Of a DNA stretch of 64,000 nucleotides, positions 3,359 through 24,468 are shown in pieces (within the stretch, counting starts at the first letter, position 1; each line of letters opens with the position of its first letter). Location of the stretch: the NCBI GenBank assembly GCA_965226555.1, contig CBDDDG010000021.1, forward strand, positions 352,001 through 416,000, in the 5' to 3' direction. The notes beneath the pieces were generated by a model. It was given only the letters and a program-made list of their open reading frames with translations, searched no databases and was not told the DNA's origin. This DNA comes from Salinispira sp. Its GTDB lineage: Bacteria > Spirochaetota > Spirochaetia > DSM-27196 > Salinispiraceae. Both the position numbers and the translations under genes were made by a program.

Positions 3359-3410
3359 AAGGTTTTGCTACTGGAAATTGTGAAAGCACAATTTTCCAAG
3401 GCAAAACTTT
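3359..3410. repeat. AT-rich nested palindromic repeat module
   Basis: aaggttttgc-tactg-gaaattgtg-aaag-cacaattttc-caag-gcaaaacttt; same family as 4649-4702, 35949-36001, 45381-45433. Confidence 0.85.
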
Positions 3411-3442
3411 ATCAAAGCAAAAATTTTTGTTAGAATGAAGGG

Positions 3443-4333
3443 ATGATGAAAACAGCCCTCATTACCGGCGCCAGTTCAGGCATTGGAGCTGCCTTTGCCC
3501 GGCAGCTTGCTCAGGAAGGATACAACCTTATTATTCATGGCCGGAGAAAGGAAAAGCTTGCAGAGCTTGCCGGGGAACTGCGCCGTTTGCGCGCCGAAGC
3601 TCGCGCCGAAACTCGCGCTGAAACTGCGGGAGGGTCAGAATCTCCATCAGAAAAATCTCCATCAGGAAAATCAAAATCAGAGTCAGAAAGGCCGAACGAA
3701 GAAGTCGTCCGAATTGTATGCGGCGATCTCATGGAGCAGGACACCCTAAACGAGCTTGCTGGAGTGGGTCGGGAAGAGAAGGTTGATCTACTCATAAATA
3801 ATGCGGGGTATGGCGCCATGCAGGATTTCTTTAGCGATGGTGATATGCAGCTCAATATGCTCAGGGTTCACTGTTATGTTCCTGCTCTGCTGTGCAGGGA
3901 GCTTATTCCCGGAATGATTGAGCGCGGCGGCGGACAGGTGATTAATGTGAGCTCGGTAGCGGGAGAACAGCGGCTGCCTCAGGCAATTATGTACACATCG
4001 ACCAAGACCTTTCTCACCGTTTTTACTGAGAGCCTTGCAATGCGGGTGAGAGATGATGGGGTGCGGGTTCAGGCCCTTCTGCCCGGTTTTACTCGGAGCG
4101 ATTTTCATGCGCGCATGCCCGAGTGGAAACGGGAAAGACGGAACAGAGGTATTGTCCGCTGGCAGACCTCAGAGCAGGTAGCTGCCTTTTCGCTGCGGAT
4201 GATCCGTACGCGGAGAGCGGGAACAATAGTTATTTCAGGGTTTTTGAACCGTTTTATCGTATGTGTTACTACCATTCTTCTGGGGAACAGAATGGGGAAG
4301 AAGCTATACCGTTATCTGGTCAGAAACATGTGA
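3443..4333 (+). CDS. SDR family NAD(P)-dependent oxidoreductase
   Basis: TGASSGIG, NNAG and YxxxK (YTSTK); low-complexity insert AEARAETRAET...SESPSEKSPS. Confidence 0.92.
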   Translation: MMKTALITGASSGIGAAFARQLAQEGYNLIIHGRRKEKLAELAGELRRLRAEARAETRAETAGGSESPSEKSPSGKSKSESERPNEEVVRIVCGDLMEQDTLNELAGVGREEKVDLLINNAGYGAMQDFFSDGDMQLNMLRVHCYVPALLCRELIPGMIERGGGQVINVSSVAGEQRLPQAIMYTSTKTFLTVFTESLAMRVRDDGVRVQALLPGFTRSDFHARMPEWKRERRNRGIVRWQTSEQVAAFSLRMIRTRRAGTIVISGFLNRFIVCVTTILLGNRMGKKLYRYLVRNM

Positions 4334-7049: not shown

Positions 7050-8843
7050 TCAATTATGAATGAGTATTGCCTTTATGCGGCGCACACCCTGAGAGCTCGA
7101 TTGTTCTTTTGTAATTTTGAATTGTCCTAATTGCGCGGTGTTTTCCGCATGAGGGCCTCCGCAGACCTCTTTTGAAAAATCTCCAATAGAATATACCTTT
7201 ACGGTATTATCGTATTTTTCTCCGAAAAGCGCGCGGGCGCCGATCTTCTTAGCATCATCAAGCGCCATACTGTCATATTTTACGGGCAGACTATTTTTAA
7301 TTTGCTCATTCACAAGCTCCTCAACGTCCCTAAGTTCTTCATAACTCAGTTTTGCAGAATGTGAAAAATCGAAACGCAGGCGATCCGGGGTAATGTTACT
7401 GCCTTTTTGAGCAACATGGTCACCGAGAATACGGCGGAGCGCTTCATGGAGAAGATGAGTTGCCGTGTGCAGGGCTGTTGTTTTCTCTCCATGATCCGCA
7501 AGCCCTCCTTTAAATGTCGCCTTCGCATCCGTTTTCGATAATTCCTGATGCCTTCGGAATGCCCGTTCGAATCCTTCTTTATCTATGCTGAGTCCATGCT
7601 CTCCCGCAAGTTCCTCGCTGAGTTCAAGCGGAAAACCATAGGTATCATACAGTTTGAAAACGATGCGGCCGGGAATAATTCGGTTGGAACTTTTGAGAAG
7701 ATTCGGGAGCATTTTCTCAAATTCCTGCTCTCCGTGCCGGAGAGTTTTGGTAAAGCGTTCTTCTTCATGTGTAAGTTCTTTCTGAATAAAATTCTTTCCG
7801 GACTGAAGTTCCGAATACACATCCGAGTATATTTCAATGACAGTTCTGCTCAGCTCCGAAAGAAAGCCCTCGGGCAATCCAAGTTTGAGTCCGTGGCGGA
7901 TACTTCGGCGAATGAGTCTTCTCAAAATATACCCCCGCCCAATGTTGGACGGACGGACTGCCTGCTGATCGCCGAGAATAAAGCAGGATGTCCGCAGATG
8001 ATCGCTAATAATTCGAAACGAGCGATCCGTATTGTTCTCGCTGCCGCCATATTGTATGGCGCTTAATTCCTGAATTTTATTGATGATGGGGCTGAAGAGT
8101 TCGGTTTCATATACCGATTTTTTTCCCTGAAGAATGGTAATGGTACGTTCAACTCCCATTCCGGTATCAACGCAGACGCGTTCTAGGTTGAGAATACGTC
8201 CATCATCGGTCCTGCGATACTGCATAAAAACATTATTCCAGATCTCAAGCCATTTCCCATCGTTTATTCCCGGACGGCTCTGATCATGACCGGGAATTCC
8301 GGTATCAATAAATATCTCTGTATCGGGCCCGCAGGGGCCGGTTTTGCCCGGAGGCCCCCACCAGTTATCTTTTTTTGGCAGATAAAATATACGATCCTTC
8401 GGCACACCCATTTTTCGCCAGAGTTCGGCGCTTTCGGTGTCACGCGGAGCATCTTCATCGCCCGCAAAAATAGTTACTGCCAGCTTTTCCGAATTAATGC
8501 CGAGCCAGTCTGCGCTGGTCAGAAATTCCCAGCTCATGCTGATGGCATCTTCCTTAAAATAATCGCCAAGGCTCCAGTTTCCCAGCATTTCGAAAAAAGT
8601 CAGATGATTCGAATCGCCAACTTCATCAATGTCGCCGGTTCGAATGCACTTCTGAACATTCACCAGACGTTTTCCCGCCGGATGTTCCTCGCCCAGAATG
8701 TAGGGAACCAGAGGATGCATGCCTGCGGTTGTGAAAAGGACGCTTGGATCATTCTCGGGAATAAGGCTTTTTCCCGATATTTCACTATGGAGATGTTCAA
8801 TAAAAAACGATATATATTTTTCACGCAATTCTTTGGCGGTCAT
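7050..8843 (-). CDS. alaS: Alanine--tRNA ligase (short form)
   Basis: LFTTAGM, HLTFFEMLGNWS, DTGMGVER, HTATHLLH, EVCGGPH. Confidence 0.97.
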   Translation of the reverse strand: MTAKELREKYISFFIEHLHSEISGKSLIPENDPSVLFTTAGMHPLVPYILGEEHPAGKRLVNVQKCIRTGDIDEVGDSNHLTFFEMLGNWSLGDYFKEDAISMSWEFLTSADWLGINSEKLAVTIFAGDEDAPRDTESAELWRKMGVPKDRIFYLPKKDNWWGPPGKTGPCGPDTEIFIDTGIPGHDQSRPGINDGKWLEIWNNVFMQYRRTDDGRILNLERVCVDTGMGVERTITILQGKKSVYETELFSPIINKIQELSAIQYGGSENNTDRSFRIISDHLRTSCFILGDQQAVRPSNIGRGYILRRLIRRSIRHGLKLGLPEGFLSELSRTVIEIYSDVYSELQSGKNFIQKELTHEEERFTKTLRHGEQEFEKMLPNLLKSSNRIIPGRIVFKLYDTYGFPLELSEELAGEHGLSIDKEGFERAFRRHQELSKTDAKATFKGGLADHGEKTTALHTATHLLHEALRRILGDHVAQKGSNITPDRLRFDFSHSAKLSYEELRDVEELVNEQIKNSLPVKYDSMALDDAKKIGARALFGEKYDNTVKVYSIGDFSKEVCGGPHAENTAQLGQFKITKEQSSSQGVRRIKAILIHN

Positions 8844-8970
8844 GAGCTCAATATACACATATACCTATTGTTTTGTACAGCGGAGTATTGTTTCGCTGGC
8901 ATTCTGCCGACATTCTGCTTGCATTCCGTAGAGTTCACAGATTCCTCCGGCATTTCACAGCATGGTTATG

Positions 8971-10784: not shown

Positions 10785-10796
10785 AATTTTACTATG

Positions 10797-10822
10797 AGAG
10801 TCGGTCTTCCGGCTCTTTTTTT
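10797..10822 (+). terminator. Intrinsic terminator between tRNA-Phe and rimP
   Basis: agagtcgg-tctt-ccggctct followed by a T run. Confidence 0.7.
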
Positions 10823-10832
10823 ATTACGGAAT

Positions 10833-11279
10833 ATGGAAACAGGAAAAAGTGAATTACATATGGAGTTGCAAGCGCTAATCGGCAGTATGGGTTATGTTCT
10901 TCTGGAAGTAAAAACCGTTCACATATCAGCGGGGCGGAAAGTGTATATGGTCATACATTCCGAACAAGGTATTAGTATGGAAGATTGCGCGTTTATCAAC
11001 AAAACAATTCTTCCCCGGCTTGAGATACTATTTTCTTCACGTGAAATTACACTTGAGGTGAGTTCTCCGGGTCTGGAAAGAGAACTGGCGGGGTTTGATG
11101 AATTTATGATATTTCAGGGAAAATATGTTAGAGTTCTGCTTGAAGATTCCCGGTGGATATACGGGGTCATTGCAAAGGCAGACGAAAAAAGTCTATTCTT
11201 AAATAAAGCAGGAATTATGCGTGAAATCAGAAACGATCACATACGTAAGGCACAGTTGATCTATCGGGGAGAAAAATAG
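10833..11279 (+). CDS. rimP: Ribosome maturation factor RimP
   Basis: GISMEDC, LEVSSPGLER; lies directly before nusA. Confidence 0.9.
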   Translation: METGKSELHMELQALIGSMGYVLLEVKTVHISAGRKVYMVIHSEQGISMEDCAFINKTILPRLEILFSSREITLEVSSPGLERELAGFDEFMIFQGKYVRVLLEDSRWIYGVIAKADEKSLFLNKAGIMREIRNDHIRKAQLIYRGEK

Positions 11280-12935
11280 ATGGCCTCAGACATTATAGAT
11301 GCAATTAAAGCGGTTGTTGCGGAAAAAGGTATCTCAGAAGATCTTGTTCGGCACACAATTGAGGAATTTCTCCTTGCAGCATACAAGAAAAAATACGGTG
11401 CCTCGGATAATGCGGTTATTAAATTTTCGGATGATGATGTATCGATCTATGCCCGCAAGGCGATAGTCGAAGAAGTGCTTAATCCGATAGAGGAAATCGG
11501 GCTGTCTGAAGCGCAGAAGTACAATTCAGATGCCGACATTGGCGATGAATTGCTTATCAAGATTGATCCGAAAACCTTCGATCGCTCCGCCGTTCAGAGC
11601 GCAAAACAACGAGCGCAGCAGGAACTGAGAGACATAAAAAAAGACACCCTCTATTCTGAATTCAAAAGTAAAGAGGGAGAAATGGTCATTGGGTACTATC
11701 AGCGGGAGCGGAACGGAACCATTTTTGTCGACCTCGGAAAGACTGAGGGAATTCTCCCGCGCCGCTATCAGAGCCCCCGGGAATCCTATCGAACGAATGA
11801 CAGAATCAAAGCCATGATTTATGAAGTTGAGAAATCCGCAACCGGACTTCAAATCATCCTCACACGAACTCATACTGAATTTGTTCATAAAATATTTGAA
11901 CTGGAAGTTCCCGAAATTTACGACAAAACAGTTGAAGTGTTTAAAATCGTCAGGGAGCCGGGCTACCGGACAAAAATTGCCGTGTATTCAAACCGCATCG
12001 ATGTTGATCCTGTCGGCGCCTGCGTTGGTCTGAAAGGAGTCCGCATACAATCCATTGTCCGTGAACTTGAAGGTGAAAAAATTGACATGCTGAAATTTGC
12101 CACCGATCCCCGGGAATTAATACAAAATGCGCTCAGTCCGGCTGTCGTCAGCCAAGTAGTTATTGTCGATGAAATAAAAAAGCACGCGCTCGCAATTGTT
12201 GAAGAAGATCAGCTCAGTCTTGCCATCGGTAAACAGGGCCTCAACGTACGGCTCGCAAACAGACTTGTCGACTGGAACATTGATGTTAAGACAGAAGAAC
12301 AATTTGAGGAAATGGATATTACTATTGCCAAAAAACAGGCAATAAGCGAACTGTTTAACGATGACGAGGTTGAAATTACACGAATTGCAGAACTGCCGAA
12401 TATAAGCCCCCGTCTGGTTGCAATTCTTACCCGCGATAACATTGAATACATTGAAGACCTCATGAGTCTCGATCAGGATGAAATGAAACAGCTGGCTAAC
12501 ATTACTGAAGATGACGTGGCATATATTCAGAAACTTATGAAAGATTCGCTTATTGTTGAGGATGGAAGCCCCTCCGAAGCCGAAGCTCAAGCCGCCGAAA
12601 ATACCGAAAATACTGAAGATGCCGGACATACTGAAGCTCAGAATGCGGACGGCGATAAAGGCGGGGGCGATAAAAAAGCATTGCCTGCCGAAGATGAGCC
12701 TGCGAAGGAACCTGAAGATGAAGCAGAAGATGAGATCACGTTTGTATCGGAACTTCCAGATATTCCTGAGAGGATCGTTACTGTACTTAAAGCAGAGGGA
12801 ATTGTTGAAATTATTGATCTCCTGAATATGAATGACGATGAGCTCCGTAAAATTTCGAATCTTGAAGATGAAGATATTACCCTCATTCAGGATATTATCA
12901 AAAATACCATTGAAGTTATTGAAGAGGATGAATAG
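11280..12935 (+). CDS. nusA: Transcription factor NusA with duplicated C-terminal domains
   Basis: REPGYRTKIAV, DPVGACVG, LSLAIGKQGLNVRLA. Confidence 0.97.
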   Translation: MASDIIDAIKAVVAEKGISEDLVRHTIEEFLLAAYKKKYGASDNAVIKFSDDDVSIYARKAIVEEVLNPIEEIGLSEAQKYNSDADIGDELLIKIDPKTFDRSAVQSAKQRAQQELRDIKKDTLYSEFKSKEGEMVIGYYQRERNGTIFVDLGKTEGILPRRYQSPRESYRTNDRIKAMIYEVEKSATGLQIILTRTHTEFVHKIFELEVPEIYDKTVEVFKIVREPGYRTKIAVYSNRIDVDPVGACVGLKGVRIQSIVRELEGEKIDMLKFATDPRELIQNALSPAVVSQVVIVDEIKKHALAIVEEDQLSLAIGKQGLNVRLANRLVDWNIDVKTEEQFEEMDITIAKKQAISELFNDDEVEITRIAELPNISPRLVAILTRDNIEYIEDLMSLDQDEMKQLANITEDDVAYIQKLMKDSLIVEDGSPSEAEAQAAENTENTEDAGHTEAQNADGDKGGGDKKALPAEDEPAKEPEDEAEDEITFVSELPDIPERIVTVLKAEGIVEIIDLLNMNDDELRKISNLEDEDITLIQDIIKNTIEVIEEDE

Positions 12936-12946
12936 GGAGCATTATC

Positions 12947-15900
12947 ATGAACCAGCAGGAACCCAAGGCGGAGCTCATAAAGCGGTCTGCAAAAGAAAAA
13001 AAACCAGCAGAACCCTCTGAGCAGGAACAAAAGTCGACGAAGAAAAAGGTAGTAGTTAAGAGAAAACCAACCGCAAAAGAATCCCCTTCCAATACCAAAA
13101 CCGCTACCAAAACCGCTCAGCGCCCATCCCGCAACCCGAACCAGGCAAAAAATACCGCAATGAAGCAGGGCGTAGTCGGCGGGAAATATGTCGGCCATCC
13201 AAGCGGCCGTAAAAATTTCGGACAATATGCAAAAGACCAAACACACAAATCCTACAAATCGAACAGGGCAAAACCCTCCGATACGAATCAGGGCTATAAT
13301 CGAAACCGCAACGACTACCGCCGCCCGGGCGGTGGAGCGAACCGTTTCGGCGGAGCGAACCGTTTCGGCGGGGGAGGGCGGGGACCAGGCTACGGCGGGG
13401 GATCCGGCTACGGCGGCGCCGGCCGCGGTTCTCCCGGCGGCTACCGCCCCTCCGGTTACGGTTCTTCCGGCGGCTACGGCGCCGGGGGCGCCGGCCGCGG
13501 TTCTTCCGGCGGACCTCCCCGCCCCGAAAGCGATGCGCGCCCATCCGGCACCGGCAAGCGATCCTTCAAGCCAAAGAAAAATACCAACAACTATCGGCGG
13601 AAAGATCGGCATCAGGAGAAGGAATTCCAATTCAAGAAAAAATCGATTGAACTGGCTAATCCCGTTCCAAAATCCATTGATATGATGGAAGTTATTACCG
13701 TTTCCGATCTGGCCCGAAAAATGAACCTGAAGGCCTCCGAGCTCATTGCCAAACTCATGGGAATGGGTATGATGGTTACCATTAACCAGCAGATCGATGC
13801 GGACACTGCCGGCATACTCGCTTCCGAATATCATTGTGAAGTGAAAATCGTATCCCTTTACGATGAAACACTTATTGAAACAGAAGAAGATCATGACCAT
13901 CAACTTCAGCCCCGCCCCCCCATTGTTACGGTTATGGGACACGTTGATCATGGGAAAACAAAACTCCTCGACACCATTCGTTCCAGTAATGTCATTGGCG
14001 ATGAATCGGGCGGAATTACCCAGCACATCGGCGCGTATCAGGTGGAATCATCAGGGAATAGCATTACCTTTCTCGATACTCCCGGGCACGAAGCCTTTAC
14101 GCTCATGCGATCCCGCGGCGCTCAGGTAACCGATATTGTTGTTCTTGTTGTGGCGGCGGATGATGGTGTTATGCCCCAGACAGTTGAGGCAATTCATCAT
14201 GCTCAGGATGCCGATGTGCCGATTATTGTTGCGGTAAATAAGGTTGACCTTCCCAATGCGAATGTTGACAAGGTGAAACAGCAACTTTCCGAGCACAAAC
14301 TTCTTGCTGAAGATTGGGGCGGCGATACGATGTTTCATGAAATTTCCGCGCTCAAAAATGAAGGAATATCGGAGCTCCTTGAAAACATCATTATTCAGGC
14401 AGAACTCATGGAGTTGCGGGCAAACCCCGATGCCCGCGCCGAGGGACGAATCATTGAATCGAGAATTGATCCCGGCAGGGGGACAATTGTAACCATTCTC
14501 ATTGAACGGGGAAAGTTGCGCGTTGGCGATAATTTCCTCGCGGGCGTATACCCCGGGCGCATTAGAGCAATGTTTAATGACAGAGGACAGGAACTCAATG
14601 CCGCCGGGCCCTCCATGCCGGTTGAAATAACCGGTCTTTCCGGTATTCCGAACACGGGCGATCCCTTTCAGGCGACCGAGTCCGAAAAGAAGGCCCGTCA
14701 GGTTGGCGGAAAGCGGCAGGAACTTAAAAAACTTGAAGCCGCAAAAAATGTTAAAAAAATCACCCTCAACAATCTCTACACCAGCATTCAGGAAGGAGAA
14801 ATTCAGGAAGCAAAAATAATTATTAAGGGAGATGTTCAAGGGTCGGTAGAGGCCATTCAAGGCTCATTGGAAAAACTTTCCACATCGGAAATTCGCATTC
14901 AGGTTATTCATTCCGGAGCTGGAGCAATTAACGATTCCGATGTTAACCTCGCCGTTGTTTCACAGGCAATAATCATTGGTTTTCATGTGCGGCCGACAAA
15001 CCATGCGCAGATCCTTGCCGATCGGGAAAAGGTCGAAATTCGTAAGTACAGCGTCATTTACGATGTTATTGAAGATATTCGATCGGTTATGGAAGGAATG
15101 CTGAGCCCCGAACTGAAGGAAGAGAACATCGGTACGGTCGAGATTCGCGAAACCTTCAAAGTTCCCCGCATAGGTATTGTTGCCGGCTGCTTTGTTTCTC
15201 AGGGAGTCGTTAAACGAAACAGCAGGGCACGGCTGTACCGCGAGGGTGTGGAAATTTTTAATGGAACGATGAACAGCCTGAAGCGTTTCAAGGACGATGC
15301 TAAGGAGGTCGCTAAGGGCTATGAGTGCGGTATTGGACTGAAAGATCATAGCGATATAAAAGTTGGCGACATTCTTGAGATTTTCGAAATGAAGGAAATT
15401 GCCCGTAAGCTCGGTAAGCCTCTTGTTGAAATTGAAGCAGAAAAGAAAGAATCGGGTAAGAGTAAGGCCAATGCTGCGGATAAGGTTGCGGCTAAGAGTA
15501 CGCCTAAGAGTACGGCTGCGCCTACGAGTACGGCTGCGGCGAAGAGTACGGCTGAGGCTACGAATACGGATACGGCTAAGAATACGGCTGCGGCTAAGAA
15601 TACGGCTACGGCTAAGAGTACGGATAAGGCGAAGAGTACGGCTGCGCCTAAGAATACGGCTGCGGCTAAGAGTACGGCTGCGGCTACGAATACGGCTGAG
15701 GCTAAGAGTACGGCTGAGGCTAAGAGTGCGGCTGAGGCTAAGAATACGGCTGTGGCGAAGAGTACGGCTGAGGCTACGAATACGGATAAGGCGAAGAGTA
15801 CGGCTGCGGCGAAGAGTACGGCTGCGGCTAAGAATACGGCTGCGGCTAAGAATACGGCTGTGGCTACGAGTACGGATACGGCTGCGCCTAAGAATACGGA

Positions 15901-16975
15901 TAAGAGTGCGGCTAAAAGTACGGCTAAGAGTACGGCTGCGCCTACGAGTACGGCTACGGCTAAGAGTGCGGCTGCGGCTAAAAATACGGCTGTGGCTAAG
16001 GCTAAGAGTACGGATAAGGCGAAGGTTGCGGATAAGGCTAAGAGTACGGCTGCGGATAAGAATACGGCTGTGGCTACGAGTACGGATACGGCTGCGCCTA
16101 AGAATACGGATAAGAGTGCGGCTAAAAGTACGGCTAAGAGTACGGATACGGCTAAGAGTACGGCTGCGGCTAAGAATACGGCTGTGGCGAAGAGTACGGC
16201 TGAGGCTACGAATACGGATACGGCTAAGAATACGGCTGCGGCTACGAATACGGCTGAGGCTAAGAGTACGGATACGGCTAAGAGTACGGCTGCGCCTAAG
16301 AATACGGCTGCGGCTACGAATACGGCTGCGGCTACGAATACGGATACGGCTAAGAATACGGCTGCGGCTAAGAGTACGGCTGCGGTTAAGAATACGGCTG
16401 CGGCTACGAGTACGGCTGCGGCTAAGAATACGGCTGCGGCTAAGAGTACGGCTGCGGCTACGAATACGGATACGGCTAAGAATACGGCTGAGGCTAAGAG
16501 TACGGATACGGCTAAGAGTACGGCTGCGGTTAAGAATACGGCTGCGGCTACGAGTACGGCTGCGGCTAAGAATACGGCTGCGGCTAAGAATACGGCTGCG
16601 GCTAAGAGTACGGCTGAGGCTACGAATACGGATACGGCTAAGAATACGGCTGAGGCTAAGAGTACGGATACGGCTAAGAGTACGGCTGCGCCTAAGAATA
16701 CGGATAAGAGTACGGCTGCGGCTAAGAATACGGCTGCGGATAAGAGTACGGCTGCGGCTACGAGTACGGATACGGCTAAGAGTACGGCTGCGCCTAAGAA
16801 TACGGCTGAGGCTAAGAATACGGCTGAGGCTAAGAATACGGCTGCGGCTAAGAATACGGCTGCGGCTAAGAGTACGGCTGCGGCTAAGAGTACGGCTGAG
16901 GCTAAGAATACGGCTGCGCCTAAGAATACGGCTAAGGCGAAGAGTACGGATAAGGCTAAGAGTACGGGAGAATGA
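12947..16975 (+). CDS. infB: Translation initiation factor IF-2 with ~500-aa C-terminal repeat tail
   Basis: MGHVDHGKT, FLDTPGH, NKVD, KGDVQGS, SLKRFKDD..EV..GYECGI; the canonical end falls near nt 15410. Confidence 0.96.
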   Translation: MNQQEPKAELIKRSAKEKKPAEPSEQEQKSTKKKVVVKRKPTAKESPSNTKTATKTAQRPSRNPNQAKNTAMKQGVVGGKYVGHPSGRKNFGQYAKDQTHKSYKSNRAKPSDTNQGYNRNRNDYRRPGGGANRFGGANRFGGGGRGPGYGGGSGYGGAGRGSPGGYRPSGYGSSGGYGAGGAGRGSSGGPPRPESDARPSGTGKRSFKPKKNTNNYRRKDRHQEKEFQFKKKSIELANPVPKSIDMMEVITVSDLARKMNLKASELIAKLMGMGMMVTINQQIDADTAGILASEYHCEVKIVSLYDETLIETEEDHDHQLQPRPPIVTVMGHVDHGKTKLLDTIRSSNVIGDESGGITQHIGAYQVESSGNSITFLDTPGHEAFTLMRSRGAQVTDIVVLVVAADDGVMPQTVEAIHHAQDADVPIIVAVNKVDLPNANVDKVKQQLSEHKLLAEDWGGDTMFHEISALKNEGISELLENIIIQAELMELRANPDARAEGRIIESRIDPGRGTIVTILIERGKLRVGDNFLAGVYPGRIRAMFNDRGQELNAAGPSMPVEITGLSGIPNTGDPFQATESEKKARQVGGKRQELKKLEAAKNVKKITLNNLYTSIQEGEIQEAKIIIKGDVQGSVEAIQGSLEKLSTSEIRIQVIHSGAGAINDSDVNLAVVSQAIIIGFHVRPTNHAQILADREKVEIRKYSVIYDVIEDIRSVMEGMLSPELKEENIGTVEIRETFKVPRIGIVAGCFVSQGVVKRNSRARLYREGVEIFNGTMNSLKRFKDDAKEVAKGYECGIGLKDHSDIKVGDILEIFEMKEIARKLGKPLVEIEAEKKESGKSKANAADKVAAKSTPKSTAAPTSTAAAKSTAEATNTDTAKNTAAAKNTATAKSTDKAKSTAAPKNTAAAKSTAAATNTAEAKSTAEAKSAAEAKNTAVAKSTAEATNTDKAKSTAAAKSTAAAKNTAAAKNTAVATSTDTAAPKNTDKSAAKSTAKSTAAPTSTATAKSAAAAKNTAVAKAKSTDKAKVADKAKSTAADKNTAVATSTDTAAPKNTDKSAAKSTAKSTDTAKSTAAAKNTAVAKSTAEATNTDTAKNTAAATNTAEAKSTDTAKSTAAPKNTAAATNTAAATNTDTAKNTAAAKSTAAVKNTAAATSTAAAKNTAAAKSTAAATNTDTAKNTAEAKSTDTAKSTAAVKNTAAATSTAAAKNTAAAKNTAAAKSTAEATNTDTAKNTAEAKSTDTAKSTAAPKNTDKSTAAAKNTAADKSTAAATSTDTAKSTAAPKNTAEAKNTAEAKNTAAAKNTAAAKSTAAAKSTAEAKNTAAPKNTAKAKSTDKAKSTGE
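15472..16966 (+). repeat. ~1.5-kb degenerate 18-bp (hexamer-built) tandem array
   Basis: Units such as gctaag-agtacg-gctgcg and gctaag-aatacg-gctgag, encoding AK(S/N)TA(A/E). Confidence 0.95.
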
Positions 16976-16979
16976 GTAC

Positions 16980-17669
16980 TTATTGCATCGTGTAACGAAG
17001 ATGCGGAGTATAACCGGCTGGAATGAGAATGCGCTGTTCGTCTTCGGAGCTGAGTTCAATACCCTTTTCTGTGCGCTGTATAACAGTGAAACAGTCGCCG
17101 AGTTTTATATTGTTTTCATAAATAAAGCTCAACAATCCTTCTGTTTCTTCCCCCTCTTCACTTATTCTCATAAGAATAAAGGTATCCTGCGGTTTAAGTA
17201 ATTGAATAGATGGAGCATTGAGTATTTCCTGCTCCCCGGGACTTCCCGGTATTGGGTTCCCATGAGGGCAGGTCTGTGGTCTTCCCAGTACTTCATACAT
17301 TTTTTCAGCGAATTTATCGGAAATGTTATTTTGGAGATGCTTTGCTTCTTCATCTATCTCATCCCAGGTCATATTGAGGTTTTTCAGGAGAAAATGTTCA
17401 AGAAGATAATGCCGACGGAGCATTTTTACCGCAAAGTCTTCTCCGTCTTTTGTCAGAGCGATATCACCGTAGCGTTCCTGGGAAAGATATCCGAGGATTT
17501 TCAGGCGCTTAACAGCCTGACTTACCGCGGGGCGGCTCACTTTGAGCCATGAAGCAATACGTGAATTTGTTATTATTCCATCATCCCTGCGAATAAGGTA
17601 CATGGCGGCGAGATAATCGCTTGCGGCAGGGAAGCTTTGGAGAATTTCACGGTATTCCATAAGCGCCAT
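16980..17669 (-). CDS. DtxR/TroR/MntR family metal-dependent repressor
   Basis: DYL..Y, VSRPAVSQ HTH, RRHYLLEHFL, CPHGNPIP, FeoA-like C-terminus. Confidence 0.92.
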   Translation of the reverse strand: MALMEYREILQSFPAASDYLAAMYLIRRDDGIITNSRIASWLKVSRPAVSQAVKRLKILGYLSQERYGDIALTKDGEDFAVKMLRRHYLLEHFLLKNLNMTWDEIDEEAKHLQNNISDKFAEKMYEVLGRPQTCPHGNPIPGSPGEQEILNAPSIQLLKPQDTFILMRISEEGEETEGLLSFIYENNIKLGDCFTVIQRTEKGIELSSEDEQRILIPAGYTPHLRYTMQ

Positions 17670-17710
17670 TGTATCATTATCTACACGTTTTGAAAACTTT
17701 TATCAATTTT

Positions 17711-18961
17711 GGGATATTAAGGTTTGAACAGACCCCCACTTTGACCTATTATGCGATCATTTCTTCCGAGTGCCAAGCCCTCCATCGCTCAAGCGTCGGT
17801 CGTGTGAGCCGTTGCTCCATTATGATCGGCTTGAGCCGGAGAATATCACTATCCACATTGGTATTCCGTTGCCTCAAAAGATCCAGCGGAGTCCCTTTTC
17901 GGTAGGTGTTGAACCGCCGGTAATTGAAATCTATCTGATACTCCTCGGCTTCCTTAAGAAACTCATTGAGCTTTGGATTCATCACCTGACTGTAGAACTC
18001 ATCCTCAATGAGCCGGTGCGAGGACTCGACAGAACTGTTCCATGTGCACTGCCCGGGCGGAATACGCCGATACTCGACACCCGCCTGTATGAGCGCCTGC
18101 TCAAACCCCGACGTTCGGGTCTTGCTCAGATGCCGAACGGTGAACTCTGCCCCGTTATCGGTCTGAACCGTTATGCCGTTGACAAGGTCTCCGCCGCGAT
18201 TCCGCAGGTGCTCCAGCAGGTACTCGGCGAACAAGGTTGTTACCATACTGCTCTTCTCATTGGCGAAGGCGTACCACAGAGCCCCTGTCGCCCGATCCCG
18301 GGCGGTTATCTGGTACTTCGGAACGTCTAAACACTTCTGAGAAAACCGCATAGCGGGAATGTCCGTCAGATACTTGATATCAATCTGAATGCACTCGCCG
18401 AACTTCATCCTGTCGGTTACCTCCCGCAAATCTCTCTTGGGTAGCGCCTTCGGCTTCTTTGTTTTCCGCGCCCCTATCTGCTTTAGCGTCTTGATAATCG
18501 TCGGCAGGCTGTACTTCCCGCCAACTTCCGTCTGCAACTGCTTTTGCACCTGAGTTCCAATGATTTTGTTGTGATTCCGATTCTTGGTCTGGACAAGACT
18601 CTCGAGATGACACCGGTGCCCGAATTTCATCTTCATCGGATGATTGGTCGTGCCCCGCTTCTTGTCTTCAAGCCCCTCGCCGGATTCAAAGCGCCGAACC
18701 CACCGTCGCACCGTGTTGCGCGACACCTCGAACTCCCGAGCAGCCGCCTTGATCGAATGCTCCTGGGCATACCGAACCATCCGCAACTGCCAATCATACA
18801 TCGAAGCCGCCTGATACTTCCGAGACTTGAGATGATACTGAGAATATGTGATACTACTGTTCACTGTTTCCCTCCTTTTATGTTTTATACAACCCCCAGT
18901 GTATACGAATAACCTTCGTTTTACACTGGGGAGGAGGGGTCTGTCCAAAGGTTTATATCCC
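17711..18961 (-). mobile_element. IS481/IS1202-like insertion sequence with 17-bp target duplication
   Basis: 26-bp imperfect IRs gggatattaaggtttgaacagacccc / ggggtctgtccaaaggtttatatccc; aaacttttatcaatttt at 17694-17710 and 18962-18978. Confidence 0.88.
17749..18864 (-). CDS. DDE transposase (HTH + integrase core)
   Basis: AAAREFEVSRNTVRRW, QIDIKY, QTDNGAEF, NSSVESSHR; GTG at 18864 follows SD AGGAGG. Confidence 0.9.
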   Translation of the reverse strand: MNSSITYSQYHLKSRKYQAASMYDWQLRMVRYAQEHSIKAAAREFEVSRNTVRRWVRRFESGEGLEDKKRGTTNHPMKMKFGHRCHLESLVQTKNRNHNKIIGTQVQKQLQTEVGGKYSLPTIIKTLKQIGARKTKKPKALPKRDLREVTDRMKFGECIQIDIKYLTDIPAMRFSQKCLDVPKYQITARDRATGALWYAFANEKSSMVTTLFAEYLLEHLRNRGGDLVNGITVQTDNGAEFTVRHLSKTRTSGFEQALIQAGVEYRRIPPGQCTWNSSVESSHRLIEDEFYSQVMNPKLNEFLKEAEEYQIDFNYRRFNTYRKGTPLDLLRQRNTNVDSDILRLKPIIMEQRLTRPTLERWRAWHSEEMIA

Positions 18962-19129
18962 AAACTTTTATCAATTTTCTCTTGATTATCAGCATAAACT
19001 AATTTATACTGTCACTTCATCATCTTTCTGTCCTCTTGGTAGTGTATTTTTTCTCTATATGCGCGCTATCTCAGAGGGCAGGGAGGTGGTGTACGTATGG
19101 TTGAATTCGCCATTCGGTGGATGTTGTGA

Positions 19130-19158: not shown

Positions 19159-19223
19159 GGCTTTATCATTTGAGACAGTTGCTGTGCAACGATCTCAATT
19201 ATATGACCTTGGAGGTAACATAT

Positions 19224-20828
19224 ATGAAAATTAAAGGAATAACCTTTTGTATTTTCTGCGCAATATCCATTGCGTTGATTTCTGGATGCCCAACACCAGA
19301 ACCGGAACCCGGGCCAACTGCGCCGCCTGTTATGTCTGCTCCGACTCTCACAGCGGGAAACGGACAACTTACAGCCTCATGGATTGATCCGACTACATGG
19401 AATTGGGGAGATAACAAAGCGGTCAACGCTATTACCTCGTACAATCTGCGCTATCGGGAAGTCGGCAGCGAGAGCTGGACGGAGATTAACTCCGGTATAA
19501 CCGGCACAAGCCACACCATTACCGAACTGACAAACGGCGACACCTACCACGTGCAGGTGCGCGCCATCAACGCTCAGGGCACTGGCGGCTGGTCGGCATC
19601 TGCCACAGCAACACCTATTGCGCCGCCAACTGCGCCCCCTGTCGCGCCGGGCACAATGGCTGCTCCAACCCTTGAAGTGGGGAATGGACAGCTCATTGCG
19701 ACATGGACTGCGCCGGAAAATGATGGCGGCAGCCCCATTACCGGGTATGAACTGCAATATCGCACAGATGCTGGAGCATGGACGCGCATTAGCTCCGGCA
19801 TTGCCTGCGAAAACAGCGAGGGGCAGACAGAAGTCTGTCATTTTTCCTTCTCATCGTACTCTTCCTACACAATTCACAGCATTACGGCAGACGGCGCCAA
19901 CTACCAACTACAGGTACGCGCCGTCAACGCGCAGGGCAGTGGCGAATGGTCTGCAACAGCAATGTTGCTTTTTGCAACGCAGGTTCCTGCGGGCGAGGCA
20001 GCGGTCGCAATTTTTCCGGCTGATATTGATAACCCCATTGCCCCTGAAATTGTCACTGAGCTCAGCATTTCTTTGACCGCGGTGGGGGCGAGCAATATCA
20101 TCACGGTCGGTGATGGAGACATTACGTCGGTCACCTCCGTAGCGACGCCCAATGGAGTTACCCCGCCGACTGTTGATTCGAGCAGCGGACTTATTACGCT
20201 TACGGTTACCGCAGATACAACGGCAGGAACATATGTGATATATGACAACAATGCAACCGGAACCGATGGTCTCCTCTTTGCCGAATATTTCTTTGTTACT
20301 GAGAGTCCTCAAGATAAAACTCAACTGCAAACACGGGTAACTGAGGGTATAGATACTTGGGGCAATACTGGTAATTTCAACTACATCATTACCGCTACAG
20401 TAACGGATATGTCTAGCATTTTCAATAGTAAAACCTCATTCAATGGCGATATCTCCGGCTGGGATGTCAGCGCGGTAACGAATATGTTTCAGATGTTCAA
20501 TAACGCAAGCGCATTCAATGGCGATATCTCCGCTTGGGATGTCGGTTCGGTAACGATTACAACCCAGATGTTCAATAGCGCTGCTACATTCAATACCGAT
20601 ATCTCCGGCTGGGATGTCGGCTCTTTAACGACTATGCCCTTTATGTTCAATTCTGCAATCGCATTCAATGTCGATCTTGAGGAGTGGAAGGATCATTGGA
20701 CGCTTGATGGCGATGGAAAATATACCGGAACCATAGTAAGTATGTTTGATGGTTCCGGTGTGGTGTCGAATACGGACGGGTCGGATATGAGTAAGCCTAC
20801 AGGTGTTGGTACTCCATCATGGTATTAG
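19224..20828 (+). CDS. Fn3 (x2) + DUF285/BspA-like repeat (x4) surface lipoprotein
   Basis: SD GGAGG; lipobox ISGC-PTPEPEP; Fn3 Y.VQVRA.NA.G.G.WS; FNGDISxWDV repeats; ends PSWY. Confidence 0.88.
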   Translation: MKIKGITFCIFCAISIALISGCPTPEPEPGPTAPPVMSAPTLTAGNGQLTASWIDPTTWNWGDNKAVNAITSYNLRYREVGSESWTEINSGITGTSHTITELTNGDTYHVQVRAINAQGTGGWSASATATPIAPPTAPPVAPGTMAAPTLEVGNGQLIATWTAPENDGGSPITGYELQYRTDAGAWTRISSGIACENSEGQTEVCHFSFSSYSSYTIHSITADGANYQLQVRAVNAQGSGEWSATAMLLFATQVPAGEAAVAIFPADIDNPIAPEIVTELSISLTAVGASNIITVGDGDITSVTSVATPNGVTPPTVDSSSGLITLTVTADTTAGTYVIYDNNATGTDGLLFAEYFFVTESPQDKTQLQTRVTEGIDTWGNTGNFNYIITATVTDMSSIFNSKTSFNGDISGWDVSAVTNMFQMFNNASAFNGDISAWDVGSVTITTQMFNSAATFNTDISGWDVGSLTTMPFMFNSAIAFNVDLEEWKDHWTLDGDGKYTGTIVSMFDGSGVVSNTDGSDMSKPTGVGTPSWY

Positions 20829-20871
20829 TTTCATAGCCCCCAGCGGTTATTGAAAAGTGACAAGTCAACTC

Positions 20872-20909
20872 AGGCAGGCACGGAAAAAAAATCCGTGCCT
20901 GCCTTTTTT
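20872..20909 (+). terminator. Intrinsic terminator shared by the three DUF285 genes
   Basis: aggcaggcacgga-loop-tccgtgcctgcct-ttttt. Confidence 0.85.
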
Positions 20910-21231
20910 CGATTGCTCGCCATGCGTCTGTTGCTGAGGCGGGGGGGCTGGTCGCGCTGCTCGCCATGCAGCCGGGCTGGTCGGAGGCTTGCGTCCGGCT
21001 CGCTTATGCGCGCTCAATTTTCGGGCTATATCTTACGCAGTCAGTCGGATATCGCCATAAACGCGCTATCCTGAGCGCACCCCTTCCCGTCCACTCACCC
21101 GCATTTCAGAGCCCTCCCCTCCCGTAGCCCCAAAAAAATCACACATTTTGCAAAATTCTTTCAAATTCTCTCAAAAAACATAGTCAAAAATGACTTTTTA
21201 CCCGTTATAGATATAGAGGGGAGAATTCACC

Positions 21232-21306
21232 ATGGGACCATGTCGCCATGGGAACTCCCCTATTCAGAAAGAAACGTTCAGAAAAACCTTCAGGAGGATT
21301 GTATGA
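21232..21306 (+). CDS. Putative 24-aa leader ORF coupled to the rpn start
   Basis: SD GAGGGGAG; MGPCRHGNSPIQKETFRKTFRRIV*; its TGA overlaps the ATG at 21303. Confidence 0.35.
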   Translation: MGPCRHGNSPIQKETFRKTFRRIV

Positions 21307-22379
21307 TCGATTTCAAAGAAAAACCCGCCCCCGTTCCCTACGACCAAGGATACCGCTCCCTGCTGTTCCAACCCGCAATAATGCTCCAATTTCTTCAACG
21401 CTTTGTCGGAGGCGCATGGACGAAAAAATTGCGAACCGAGGACATAACCATTGAAAACGGTACCTTTTTCATTGACCATGCGAAAACACGGATGGCCGAC
21501 ATTGTCTGCAAAATCAGAACTCGGGATCACACGGGAGATGTTGCTATCTATGTGCTCCTTGAGCATCAGTCTGGAGTGGACAAAGACATGCCCATCCGCA
21601 TGTCGGAATATACGAATCTGCTCTATAGAAACATTCACCGCTCCGGCGCAATTCCCGATGACTGCGAGTTGGTATTTCTGCCCATTGTGTTCTATAATGG
21701 CACGAGAAAATGGAAGGTGCCGGGGAATGTCAGGGAGCAGAATACGCGGGAATTCCCGCAGTATCTTGCTCCTTTTCCCTACGATCTTATTAGCGAGAGC
21801 GATTATTCTGCGGAGCAGCTGCAGCAGCGGGGAAGAATGTTTGCGGCTGTTATGTACCTTGATCTGTACTCGAAAAATCTGCTGAATACGGATTGGGACA
21901 TTCAGAAGGTGGAGAAAGCGATAGCAGAAATGCTGAATGAGGAATCGCTGGAGCTGATAAAGGAATTTATCGGCGTGGTAGATTCGATGTTCGGAATTGT
22001 TATAGATTTAGATACGTTAATGAATCAATTAGAAAGAACAAAAGAACCGAGAGGTAAGGAGGTAGCGAAAATGTTCAGAATGAATGCGGAAACATTCAGA
22101 GCTCACATTGCGGAGATGGGTCGGCAGGAAGGACTACAGACAGGACTGCGAACAGGTCGACAGGAAGGCCGTGAAGAAGGTCGGCAGGAAGGATTGCAGA
22201 CAGGTCGTGAAGAAGGACTTCAGACAGGACTGCAGAAAGGACTACAGACAGGTCGGCAAGAAGGCATTCGAGAAACGGCCCGCAGTATGTTTTTGGAAGG
22301 GTTGTCGACCGAGGCTGTTCAGAGAATTACCGGGCTGAGCGATGAGGAAATGCGCACATTGCGAAACGGGTCGCATTAA
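21303..22379 (+). CDS. Rpn/YhgA-like PD-(D/E)XK nuclease (Transposase_31 family), intact
   Basis: YDQGYRSLLF, RMADIV, YVLLEHQS..DKDMPIRM..Y, PIVFYNG..KW; C-terminal G.QEG 4-aa repeats; SD AGGAGG. Confidence 0.9.
   Translation: MIDFKEKPAPVPYDQGYRSLLFQPAIMLQFLQRFVGGAWTKKLRTEDITIENGTFFIDHAKTRMADIVCKIRTRDHTGDVAIYVLLEHQSGVDKDMPIRMSEYTNLLYRNIHRSGAIPDDCELVFLPIVFYNGTRKWKVPGNVREQNTREFPQYLAPFPYDLISESDYSAEQLQQRGRMFAAVMYLDLYSKNLLNTDWDIQKVEKAIAEMLNEESLELIKEFIGVVDSMFGIVIDLDTLMNQLERTKEPRGKEVAKMFRMNAETFRAHIAEMGRQEGLQTGLRTGRQEGREEGRQEGLQTGREEGLQTGLQKGLQTGRQEGIRETARSMFLEGLSTEAVQRITGLSDEEMRTLRNGSH
22071..22379 (+). CDS. Putative internally initiated small Rpn protein (RpnS-type antitoxin)
   Basis: In-frame AAGGAGG-tagcgaaa-ATG just before the 4-aa repeats. 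Confidence 0.65.
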   Translation: MFRMNAETFRAHIAEMGRQEGLQTGLRTGRQEGREEGRQEGLQTGREEGLQTGLQKGLQTGRQEGIRETARSMFLEGLSTEAVQRITGLSDEEMRTLRNGSH

Positions 22380-22482: not shown

Positions 22483-22794
22483 ATGTATGCATTAATAGAT
22501 ATCAGAGGTAAGCAATATCGGGCGGAAAAGGATGCTCTCATTCAGGTCGATAGATTGCATGAGGAAGCAGGGGCGCAAATTACGTTCAATTCTGTTCTTC
22601 TTCTTAATTCCGGGAAGGATGTGAAGGTCGGACTTCCATATGTTAAGGGAGCAAAGGTTACGGCGGAAGTTGTTGAACACCTGCGGGGGAAAAAAATTAC
22701 GGTATTTAAGTATCGCCGCAGAAAAGATTCCATGAGCAAAAATGGCCACCGTTCACATTATTCCATTCTGAAAATAACCGATATCACCATGTGA
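22483..22794 (+). CDS. rplU: 50S ribosomal protein L21
   Basis: MYALI..GKQY, RGKKITVFKY, GHR. Confidence 0.96.
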   Translation: MYALIDIRGKQYRAEKDALIQVDRLHEEAGAQITFNSVLLLNSGKDVKVGLPYVKGAKVTAEVVEHLRGKKITVFKYRRRKDSMSKNGHRSHYSILKITDITM

Positions 22795-22853
22795 ATTGCG
22801 CTATATGTGCGCCATTGTCAGCAGCCCTGAGTTTGCTGCCGCGGATCTTACCT

Positions 22854-23192
22854 ATGATACACTGTGTAATTACGGAATCGTCCGGTGTTCTTCGAAGGCT
22901 TGAATCGAAGGGGCATGCTCATACGGACAGTCGGCAGGGAGCGGTGAGTATTTCCTGCGCTGCCGTCAGCGCGCTTATCAGGAGTCTTGGAATGGCTCTT
23001 GAAAAGCGAAGTGATGTAGAAGTTCGTGTTCATACCCTTTCCCCGGGAAATGTATGTTTTCACATTGTTTCATCAGCGCCGGAATCGCAGGGCTGGCTTC
23101 GGGGTCTTACGGATATGTTTATTCAGGGAATGGAAGGAGTGAAAAACGATTTTCCCGATCAAATTTCCTTTGAGAGAAAAAAATCGATATAA
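22854..23192 (+). CDS. prp: Ribosomal-processing cysteine protease Prp (YsxB family)
   Basis: GHA...SCAAVSA motif; follows rplU. Confidence 0.8.
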   Translation: MIHCVITESSGVLRRLESKGHAHTDSRQGAVSISCAAVSALIRSLGMALEKRSDVEVRVHTLSPGNVCFHIVSSAPESQGWLRGLTDMFIQGMEGVKNDFPDQISFERKKSI

Positions 23193-23198
23193 CCTAAA

Positions 23199-23570
23199 AT
23201 GAGCAACTTCCGTTTTGAAAAAATTACATCCCGTCTTCAGCACCTTCTCAATGAAATCATTGTAAATAATGAGATCAAAGATCATCGGGTGAATAGCCTC
23301 TTAAGCGTCAGCGCCGTTGAGCTTTCCCGCGATGGTTCGCATGCAAAAATTAAGGTAAGCGGGTATCTTGCGAAGAATGACTTAGATGAGGGCATAGTTG
23401 GTCTCAATAGCGCTGCGGGGTATATTCAGAAAATTGTCGCATCGCGTCTTCATACGCGTCGTACCCCAAAACTCACCTTCATAAAAGACGAAGCGCTCAT
23501 TCATGGCATGGAAATATCACAGCGCCTAAAAAAATTATCCGATGATCCTCCCAGCGCTCTACCTCATTAA
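23199..23570 (+). CDS. rbfA: Ribosome-binding factor A
   Basis: IKDHRV, VELSRDGSHAKI, LNSAAGYIQ, RRTPKLTF. Confidence 0.92.
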   Translation: MSNFRFEKITSRLQHLLNEIIVNNEIKDHRVNSLLSVSAVELSRDGSHAKIKVSGYLAKNDLDEGIVGLNSAAGYIQKIVASRLHTRRTPKLTFIKDEALIHGMEISQRLKKLSDDPPSALPH

Positions 23571-24468
23571 CAAACCCCCCGGCATAACCAGCTTTCAATT
23601 TCTTTCTCCCATTAAAAAGCGGCTCGGTACAAAAAAAATTGGTCATGCGGGCACGCTCGATAAATTTGCGGAGGGTCTCATGGTGGTTCTGGCAGGGCAG
23701 GCAACACGATTTGCGGAGTATCTTGCGAATCTCGATAAATCGTATTGTGCTGAGCTGAGCTTTGGAGCCGAGACAGATACATTAGACCCTCACGGCAGGG
23801 TTGCGGCTACCGGTCCATTACCGCATAGGGATTCGCTGCTCAGATGCATGAGGCAATTTCAGGGAAAAATAGATCAGACGCCGCCTGAATTTTCTGCCAT
23901 TCACATACAGGGAAAAAGAGCTTATCAACGCGCCCGCTCTGGAGAAGAATTTACGATGCCGACCCGCAGAATACATATATATTCTCTTCGCCTGCTCAAT
24001 TATGATGGTTCTCATGCGTCAATTTCTCTTGAATGCTCGAAGGGAACCTATGTGCGGAGCCTTGCCCGCGATATTGCCCATTGCGCGGGAACCCGGGCTC
24101 ATCTCACACAACTTCAGAGAACCTCCATTGGCGCATTCACCTCACTCAATGCCCTTGATCTTGACGATTTTCTCGCACTCTCGAACGCGGAAATAGGAAA
24201 ACGCCGTATCTGGGGCAGTAAGCTTCTTCAGGCAGTTCCCCATATCCAGAAAATCACAATATCCGATACTATACTGCCGGCTATCAGAAATGGTAAACAA
24301 TTATACCTCTCCGACATTGCCGGCGCATCAGCAGAATTGGAACCTGGCCTCAGCGCCTTAGTGAATAGTTCGGATGACATACAGGCCATTGTTGAAGTGC
24401 CGGAAGATCTTTCATCTGCGCCGGTACGGATAAAATACCGAAGAGTATTTTATACACTTGACATATAG
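23542..24468 (+). CDS. truB: tRNA pseudouridine(55) synthase
   Basis: NKPPGITSF, GHAGTLD, CSKGTYVRSLARD. Confidence 0.96.
   Translation: MILPALYLINKPPGITSFQFLSPIKKRLGTKKIGHAGTLDKFAEGLMVVLAGQATRFAEYLANLDKSYCAELSFGAETDTLDPHGRVAATGPLPHRDSLLRCMRQFQGKIDQTPPEFSAIHIQGKRAYQRARSGEEFTMPTRRIHIYSLRLLNYDGSHASISLECSKGTYVRSLARDIAHCAGTRAHLTQLQRTSIGAFTSLNALDLDDFLALSNAEIGKRRIWGSKLLQAVPHIQKITISDTILPAIRNGKQLYLSDIAGASAELEPGLSALVNSSDDIQAIVEVPEDLSSAPVRIKYRRVFYTLDI

Follow-up and report, generated by a model that had tools for sequence, protein, structure and literature searches.

The window considered here, a 64,000-nucleotide (nt) stretch of contig CBDDDG010000021.1 from Salinispira sp. (assembly GCA_965226555.1, positions 352,001 to 416,000 of the forward strand), carries an infB gene (12947..16975, + strand) whose product, translation initiation factor IF2, continues for 520 residues beyond its usual end. 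The tail is built around an 83-unit hexapeptide minisatellite (15491..16972, + strand). The explanation that we favour, with a probability of about 60%, is that of a young coding minisatellite which ran away at a tolerant C-terminus in a duplication-prone genome and which probably yields, on translation, an inert disordered tail. The giant tail is confirmed as real, and it greatly exceeds the IF2 range both of this survey and of the literature.

The gene is a single frame of 1342 codons (~140 kDa product) without internal stop, terminated by TGA at 16973-16975, and it encodes the sole full IF2 of the assembly. Judged by its motifs, the protein is a bacterial IF2 with an intact core. The core (N2, G domain, domain II, C1 and C2; 13664..15409, + strand) matches the whole-protein model TIGR00487 over residues 240-821 with 836.5 bits (cut-off 424.4), and the GTPase motifs G1, G3 and G4 as well as the C2 motifs LKRFKDD and GYECG, the latter beginning at residue 791 (nt 15317), are all intact. 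AlphaFold2 models the core with pLDDT mostly 80-90, and the C2 domain matches solved IF2 chains. Single copy and intact core together suggest that the protein performs GTP-dependent fMet-tRNA delivery and subunit joining. The usual IF2 end falls at about residue 822 and, as stated in the original prediction, no stop follows until 16973. The first part of the tail is a short charged segment (15419..15478, + strand) common to the closest homologues, which have RKLGKTL.E.EK... tails ending 53-59 residues past GxECG, and it is here that the array grew. A helix is predicted at residues 826-844, only the first ~20 tail residues being helical.

From 15491 the array is written with 16 hexamers plus one terminal hexamer, and its third codon positions are almost only T or G. 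The six hexamers named in the original prediction fall among the seven commonest. The unit has three dipeptide slots, AK/AT/PK/DK/VK, then ST/NT, then AA/AE/DT/AV. Tandem Repeats Finder reports 15504-16967 with period 18, 80.7 copies and a score of 1618. The units run head-to-tail and in frame, as in coding minisatellites (variable number tandem repeats, VNTRs), and since every unit measures a multiple of 6 nt, the frame is kept without selection. The largest higher-order duplication comprises 89 nt, exact at 15847 and 16057 (15847..16145, + strand), and contains the two copies (15881 and 16091) of an 18-residue block already reported as duplicated. Other exact block duplications measure 81 nt (16365/16509) and 73 nt (16456/16618). 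Two shadow frames open over the array, 15399-17201 on the + strand (Arg/Leu-rich) and 14960-17059 on the - strand (Ser/Arg-rich), are likely by-products of the small hexamer vocabulary rather than genes.

An array of this kind could be an assembly artefact, or it could have been captured whole from a phage or a surface-protein gene. Indeed, no contig of the sequencing runs spans the whole array and its exact length rests on the assembly, the contamination of which is 6.7%. The runs X1-X3 are from one sample, possibly the source of the assembly, and check the assembly method rather than supply independent biology. Against this stand several observations. One X1 contig and one X2 contig cross 15410-15533 with 0 differences, leaving no stop near 15420-15470, and another contig covers 16875 onward. 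In X2, 43 of the 47 pieces are at least 99% identical and all 30 bins are covered. The contig ends predicted from a simulated graph of the array (k=31), at 15533, 15506-15567, 15759-15841 and 16875, agree with the observed ones, and a predicted two-copy piece is deeper (10.2 vs 5-6.8, about 1.6 times single-copy); one run piece (15926-16116) exceeds the graph prediction by 30 nt. In addition, 1048 of the 1479 31-mers are distinct, and inflation by misassembly would not give such an array. A hidden stop or misassembly is rejected in view of the crossing contigs, the graph match and the distinct 31-mers. The array is found once only in the 2.98-Mb assembly, and its unit pattern has no exact match in the genome or viral collections; a phage or foreign origin finds no support. 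Taken as a whole, artefact or capture is scarcely credible. As for the remaining run data, the summed contig depth (~3000-3700) is well below the simulated 6051, probably owing to graph simplification, and is unusable for array length; one X3 contig omits 366 nt at depth 2.6, which may be an assembly shortcut; and in run X6 (a small share) cover is limited to the conserved GTPase part and the insertion sequence (IS) downstream.

When infB 3' ends were compared over several hundred other IF2s, no comparable repeat tail was found. Measured from GxECG as far as the stop, the window IF2 has 552 residues. Corresponding lengths are 32-59 in the 27 relatives with a complete end (30 genomes searched), and the 120 nearest full-length homologues have a median of 37 (118 parsed) and a maximum of 60 except for one frameshift into rbfA, the two unparsed ones ending normally. 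All 44 IF2s chosen by words shared with the tail end 30-63 residues past the motif. The 80 metagenome loci, all parsed, have a median of 33 and reach 101, plus one non-repetitive 332. This last one (L063) lies on a 3608-nt contig, where the IF2 frame runs into unrelated sequence, and is possibly chimeric. Among cluster representatives (149 of 150 parsed) the median is 32; the longest tails, of 77-275 residues, lack repeats and resemble the product of frameshift read-through, in several cases into rbfA, and the IF2 tail of P0126 has the same appearance. Whole IF2 frames do not exceed 1015 codons in 148 of 150 phylum genomes with a match, or 1083 codons in 147 of 150 class genomes, the two samples overlapping. 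Twenty-five of these genomes were cut out, comprising most of the longest frames and five with a long ribosomal protein bS18; 23 parsed at 32-83 residues and 2 end normally. Altogether, spirochaete IF2 tails range from ~30 to 101 residues past GxECG. The exact window IF2 and bS18 proteins are absent from a protein collection which has NusA and TroR of the same contig, a metagenome scan covering 4 of 64 parts gave no close relative, and no such IF2 tail is reported in the literature searched, most subscription journals and bioRxiv supplements lying outside it. A 93%-complete family member (G002) has no full IF2 match, probably because of a contig break.

The age of the array is indicated by a close relative in the runs X4 and X5, both labelled cave metagenome, whose flanks differ from those of the window by 2.2% (X4 pieces; ~98% identical). 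One X5 contig (record 17; 296 nt at depth 4, like the flanks) joins the unique sequence of 15440-15472 to 16859-17097 with 24 nt (8 codons) in between, skipping 15473..16858 (+ strand), that is 1386 nt, 462 codons or 77 x 18 nt. According to this single low-depth contig the relative's tail has ~66 codons, vs 520 in the window, with the frame kept, and a close relative thus appears to carry a same-site repeat roughly ten times shorter. The units of this allele obey the grammar of the window array, with 10 differences in 46 nt, 7 residue-changing and 3 silent, so the unit sequence is not conserved. At 80% likeness X4 and X5 show no deep cover over the array, as a long array would give; the few deep pieces are 31-60 nt long, 80-87% alike, and look like repeats of other organisms. 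Since the outgroups are without any array, expansion is the simpler direction, and since the contig with the short allele has the same infB/troR junction as the window, that convergent junction predates the giant array.

The array itself also looks recent. No codon apart from the last is present fewer than three times, and singletons make up just 4 of the 36 dicodon types, sited either at junctions or where the pre-array seed has been copied. Had the array been static, its 1.48 kb should have gathered ~16 private changes since the split (half of 2.2%); their near-absence means that it is either young or subject to constant turnover. The original prediction had offered a VNTR as one of its two readings, and the short allele at the same site, together with the youth of the array, speaks for it. 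There is no sign of purifying selection on the array residues: 14 of the 18 single-base links between used codons are residue-changing, near or above the 73% neutral share, and the units vary chiefly at codon positions 1 and 2.

The genome around the array gathers duplications of the same kind. In 480 orthologue pairs from 1.2 of the 3.8 Mb of the relative G004 (833 raw pairs, 353 overlapping, shadow or weak ones dropped), 54 genes here vs 11 in G004 contain in-frame tandem repeats, a roughly fivefold excess (discordant 49 vs 6, p 2e-9), and against 0.36 Mb of the relative G001 the counts are 16 vs 1 of 117. Apart from that of IF2, these repeats measure 26-204 nt. Two genes survive as remnants. 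Exonuclease I (ExoI) is an open 233-codon remnant with two internal deletions (G000:C26:1757-2458, L222). MutS2 is a 75-codon Smr-like piece (G000:C16:93497-93724) matching the C-terminus of a relative's MutS2, the remainder not being found in the assembly, and a MutS2-class match is present in 12 of 12 relatives. ExoI, along with ExoX and RecJ, is reported to stabilise tandem repeats (PMC3942315). That the two losses cause the duplications is no more than a lead. Nothing in the assembly points to a wholesale loss of mismatch repair or to the loss of RecA, RqcH or the hibernation factor, of which a short form is present along with RqcH. The ExoI remnant begins just after an apparent tRNA gene.

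The following course of events can be proposed. The short charged tail past domain C2, which the family has, would have been the starting point, and the short array of the same grammar at that site in the ~98%-identical relative, as seen in its one contig, would represent an intermediate state. Slippage in the 6-nt register would keep the frame, longer arrays would mutate faster, and block duplications of 50-89 nt may record the later expansion steps, giving a roughly tenfold recent expansion by slipped-strand and unequal-exchange events. The gathering of in-frame tandem duplications in a genome with only remnants of ExoI and MutS2 could have favoured this process. Finally, selection against the tail may have been too weak to purge it, because the tail end points away from the fMet-tRNA site and its residues are cheap. 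Growth of E. coli is possible when foreign extensions are fused to the C-terminus of IF2 (Fer et al., bioRxiv 10.64898/2026.02.08.704698); in another study (PMC12297416) IF2 was tagged at the N-terminus, which has no bearing on C-terminal tolerance. New here are the apparent short allele in a relative, the near-absence of private mutations, the genome-wide excess of in-frame duplications and the remnants of ExoI and MutS2.

Several points weigh against a neutral runaway array. The short allele is known from one contig, placed at 80% likeness, the shorter side of which has just 33 letters, and the X5 run has no cover at 15418-15439. MutS1, MutL and RecA are intact in the window genome, G001 has few duplications yet no ExoI match, and a MutS2-class match is retained in five other spirochaetes whose bS18 N-termini are long (in one of them weak and split). 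The last two observations leave loss of ExoI or of MutS2 unsupported as sole cause. Short tails added to IF2 change growth by 5-40%, so tails are not always neutral, at least in the constructs described by Fer et al. The most serious point concerns bS18. Among 3308 crudely called open reading frames (ORFs) the longest low-complexity segments are those of bS18 (526) and IF2 (515), followed by 191 and 133, and ~30 other ribosomal proteins compared with G004 have no long extension. Random runaway sites would be unlikely to yield two outliers of near-equal size, both belonging to the 30S initiation machinery, and this pairing is the main fact that the neutral explanation leaves unexplained.

The sole bS18 of the assembly (G000:C1:87222-89099, - strand; L043:7223-9085) has ~616 residues, ~530 of them extra at the N-terminus, where QEAPK/QETPK repeats form a ~100-copy pentapeptide array with more synonymous variety than that of IF2. 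Its gene belongs to an rpsF-ssb-rpsR cluster free of any inserted block; a membrane-protein gene and rplI come next. The pairing raises the possibility that the tail is selected, IF2 and bS18 bearing hydrophilic bristles on the initiating 30S subunit that slow joining, space ribosomes or aid solubility. Arrays of ~500 residues are found on these two proteins only, and both are without aromatic residues and less than 3% hydrophobic. In the single-copy bS18 gene the long start is preceded by a ribosome-binding site, and no obvious one precedes the internal Met 539. Moreover, long repeat-bearing bS18 N-termini recur in small-genome spirochaetes: the frames have 189-309 codons in L196-L200 (G189, G215, G238, G255 and G290), one protein (P0168) has 393 residues, and several have repeat units of their own. 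Ribosomal proteins and IF2 are also described as commonly carrying terminal low-complexity regions (Ntountoumi et al., PMC6821194), S18 itself having 0 occurrences in the main text of that paper. On the other side, the ~98%-identical relative appears to manage with about an eighth of the tail, the five long-bS18 genomes checked all have ordinary IF2 ends, so that the pairing is not general, and the two arrays share no unit, are both net positive and coexist with a retained RqcH and short hibernation factor. We therefore consider selection for the pair possible but doubtful. Its most specific form appears unlikely, namely that matched bristles were lengthened by selection into a steric brush throttling subunit joining or preventing ribosome stacking, perhaps to compensate for the missing collision splitter MutS2, with translation initiation tuned heritably through repeat length. 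In G189 and G215 only a MutS2-class match is present and no MutS1-class one.

The composition of the tail bears on another explanation, according to which it binds RNA or DNA non-specifically, like Lys-rich H1-type tails, or drives condensates like the N-terminal disordered region of IF2. Residues 841-1342 (502 in all) comprise A176, T109, K76, S45, N39, D23, E14, P10, V9 and G1, that is 35% Ala, 22% Thr, 15% Lys (15.1%), 9% Ser, 8% Asn and 7% acidic residues, with 0 Arg and 0 aromatic. A net charge of +39 (+0.078 per residue), a pI of ~10 and a Lys spacing of 6 residues in 39 of 75 gaps would agree with such binding. Condensate-driving regions are recognised by Arg, aromatic and Gly residues, and of these the tail has one Gly. 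H1-like Lys/Ala repeat tails are found on Chlamydia Hc2, Pseudomonas AlgP and HupB, as well as on Streptomyces TopA and mycobacterial Ku. The latter two are cited as such by Ntountoumi et al. (PMC6821194), who use 30% Lys as a mark for nucleic-acid-binding low-complexity regions. The window tail shares with these tails its Ala/Lys repeats, C-terminal position and predicted disorder, but it has half or less of their Lys, has acidic residues mixed in and is unconserved between close relatives. The earlier description of the tail as basic and histone-H1-like therefore fails; it is only weakly basic.

As to condensates, the N-terminal disordered region of IF2 phase-separates with RNA and drives cold-induced condensates (Ghosh et al., bioRxiv 10.1101/2025.02.02.631968). 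Like that region, the tail amounts to several hundred disordered residues on IF2, but it sits at the opposite end, and the window IF2 keeps its own N-terminal region, which is rich in Arg, Gly and aromatic residues and more basic than the tail (net +0.15 per residue). From its composition the tail reads as a weakly charged spacer, neither an H1-type binder nor a condensate driver, and a role of either kind is improbable. Within the N-terminal region, Gly/Arg/Tyr-rich repeats lie at 13330-13520, where the X4 relative is without 18, 3 and 6 nt, all in frame.

Disorder, which had also been proposed, is consistent with two AlphaFold2 runs, in context and alone, that returned the tail as coil with pLDDT <50, neither having a real alignment for the tail, which makes this weak evidence. 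In the run of the tail alone, a 180-residue piece had a mean pLDDT of 35.5 and no structure, its self-alignment being shallow, and no tail match above 0.82 came from the Atlas. Thr/Ala repeats of beta-solenoid ice-binding proteins form a regular solenoid fold with rows of Thr; for a solenoid fold of the tail, the tail-piece model and the Atlas give no support.

It may also be imagined that the gene is real and that the working protein is without the tail, owing to protease clipping or to frequent unfinished synthesis. Long disordered tails are protease-sensitive, and there is no terminator-like site between the convergent infB and troR genes. Yet the array shows no conspicuous cleavage motif, internal stop or RNA structure, its RNA folding no better than shuffled sequences (z 0.29), and hydrophobic residues, which many proteases favour, are almost lacking in the tail. 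The chance that the tail is lost in this way seems slight.

If the tail is instead a neutral runaway minisatellite, it remains unusual for the protein that bears it. Bacterial coding minisatellites usually occur on surface or accessory proteins. The window array resembles them in its in-frame tandem units, block duplications and length difference between close relatives, but it sits on a single-copy essential GTPase. Among 809 IF2 homologues, C-terminal extensions are of 0-8 residues in most bacteria and of 25-48 residues in a/eIF5B, where they are under purifying selection (Fer et al.). The window tail is likewise an extension past C2 on an intact core, predicted to be mostly disordered; it differs in being repeat-built and unstable at 520 residues, with only the first ~20 helical and varying units, whereas the a/eIF5B extension is helical. 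IF2 also tops the list of proteins with low-complexity regions given by Ntountoumi et al. (PMC6821194), although the passages concerned do not place these regions at the C-terminus. The likeness lies in an Ala/Lys-rich segment ending a translation protein; the regions described there are Ala/Glu- or Lys-rich and kept across genera, whereas the window array consists of Ala, Thr, Lys, Ser and Asn and is found in one lineage only.

Here, then, the organism's only IF2 carries 520 residues adjoining the initiator-tRNA domain, vs 0-8 in most species surveyed. If the tail is neutral, the C-terminus of IF2 can bear 48 kDa of extra chain, and a duplication-prone genome is able to enlarge essential proteins tenfold from one near-identical relative to another. 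Selection for the IF2/bS18 pairing, if it exists, would represent a new way of tuning initiation. In either case the natural long and short alleles are a ready pair for asking whether disordered tails on translation proteins act, which neither PMC6821194 nor Fer et al. settle.

Upstream of infB the synteny is ordinary, with rimP-nusA at 10794..12935 (+ strand). Downstream, a TroR/MntR-type metal repressor gene (16980..17669, - strand) is convergent to infB, the stops lying 4 nt apart. Convergent transcription through repeats is linked to instability in other systems and could add to that of the array. Then follow an IS481-like transposase gene (17749..18963, - strand; below the model's cut-off), a Fn3/DUF285 lipoprotein-like gene with an Rpn (YhgA-like) gene (19170..22379, + strand) and rplU-prp (22483..23192, + strand), moved from beside rpmA-obg, at the end of the block. 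Together with troR they make up 6223 nt between the infB stop and rbfA-truB (23199..24468, + strand), with the ancestral order kept on both sides; in 27 of 27 relatives rbfA or truB is within ~530 nt of infB. The suggestion that the array arose where rbfA was detached from infB is right as to the separation. Detachment nevertheless fails to explain the size of the tail, since the relative with the short allele shares the infB/troR junction and the equally long bS18 array sits in a cluster without an inserted block.

The IS481-like element (17700-18000) has 5-25 times single-copy depth in the runs and is thus multicopy; it is also present in the relative's runs. The rpmA-obg genes remain at G000:C10:457529-458919 and rplU-prp now leads into rbfA-truB (22483-23570), so that the gene for the L27-processing protease is apart from that of its substrate. 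Elsewhere in the window, an acidic low-complexity linker (12560-12735) joins the two C-terminal domains of NusA, and PNPase ends in an RRDDGG-type repeat tail (27099-27328), with 762 residues vs 727 in G004. An alanyl-tRNA synthetase-like ORF (7050-8858) has only 602 residues, full-length enzymes usually being longer. The organism is an uncultured spirochaete, and Salinispira labels on a NusA cluster-mate and on the third-best IF2 homologue place it in that family. Large Fn3/DUF285, ankyrin-period and Rpn families, which we take to be a sign of host association, would suggest a host-associated life for this spirochaete.

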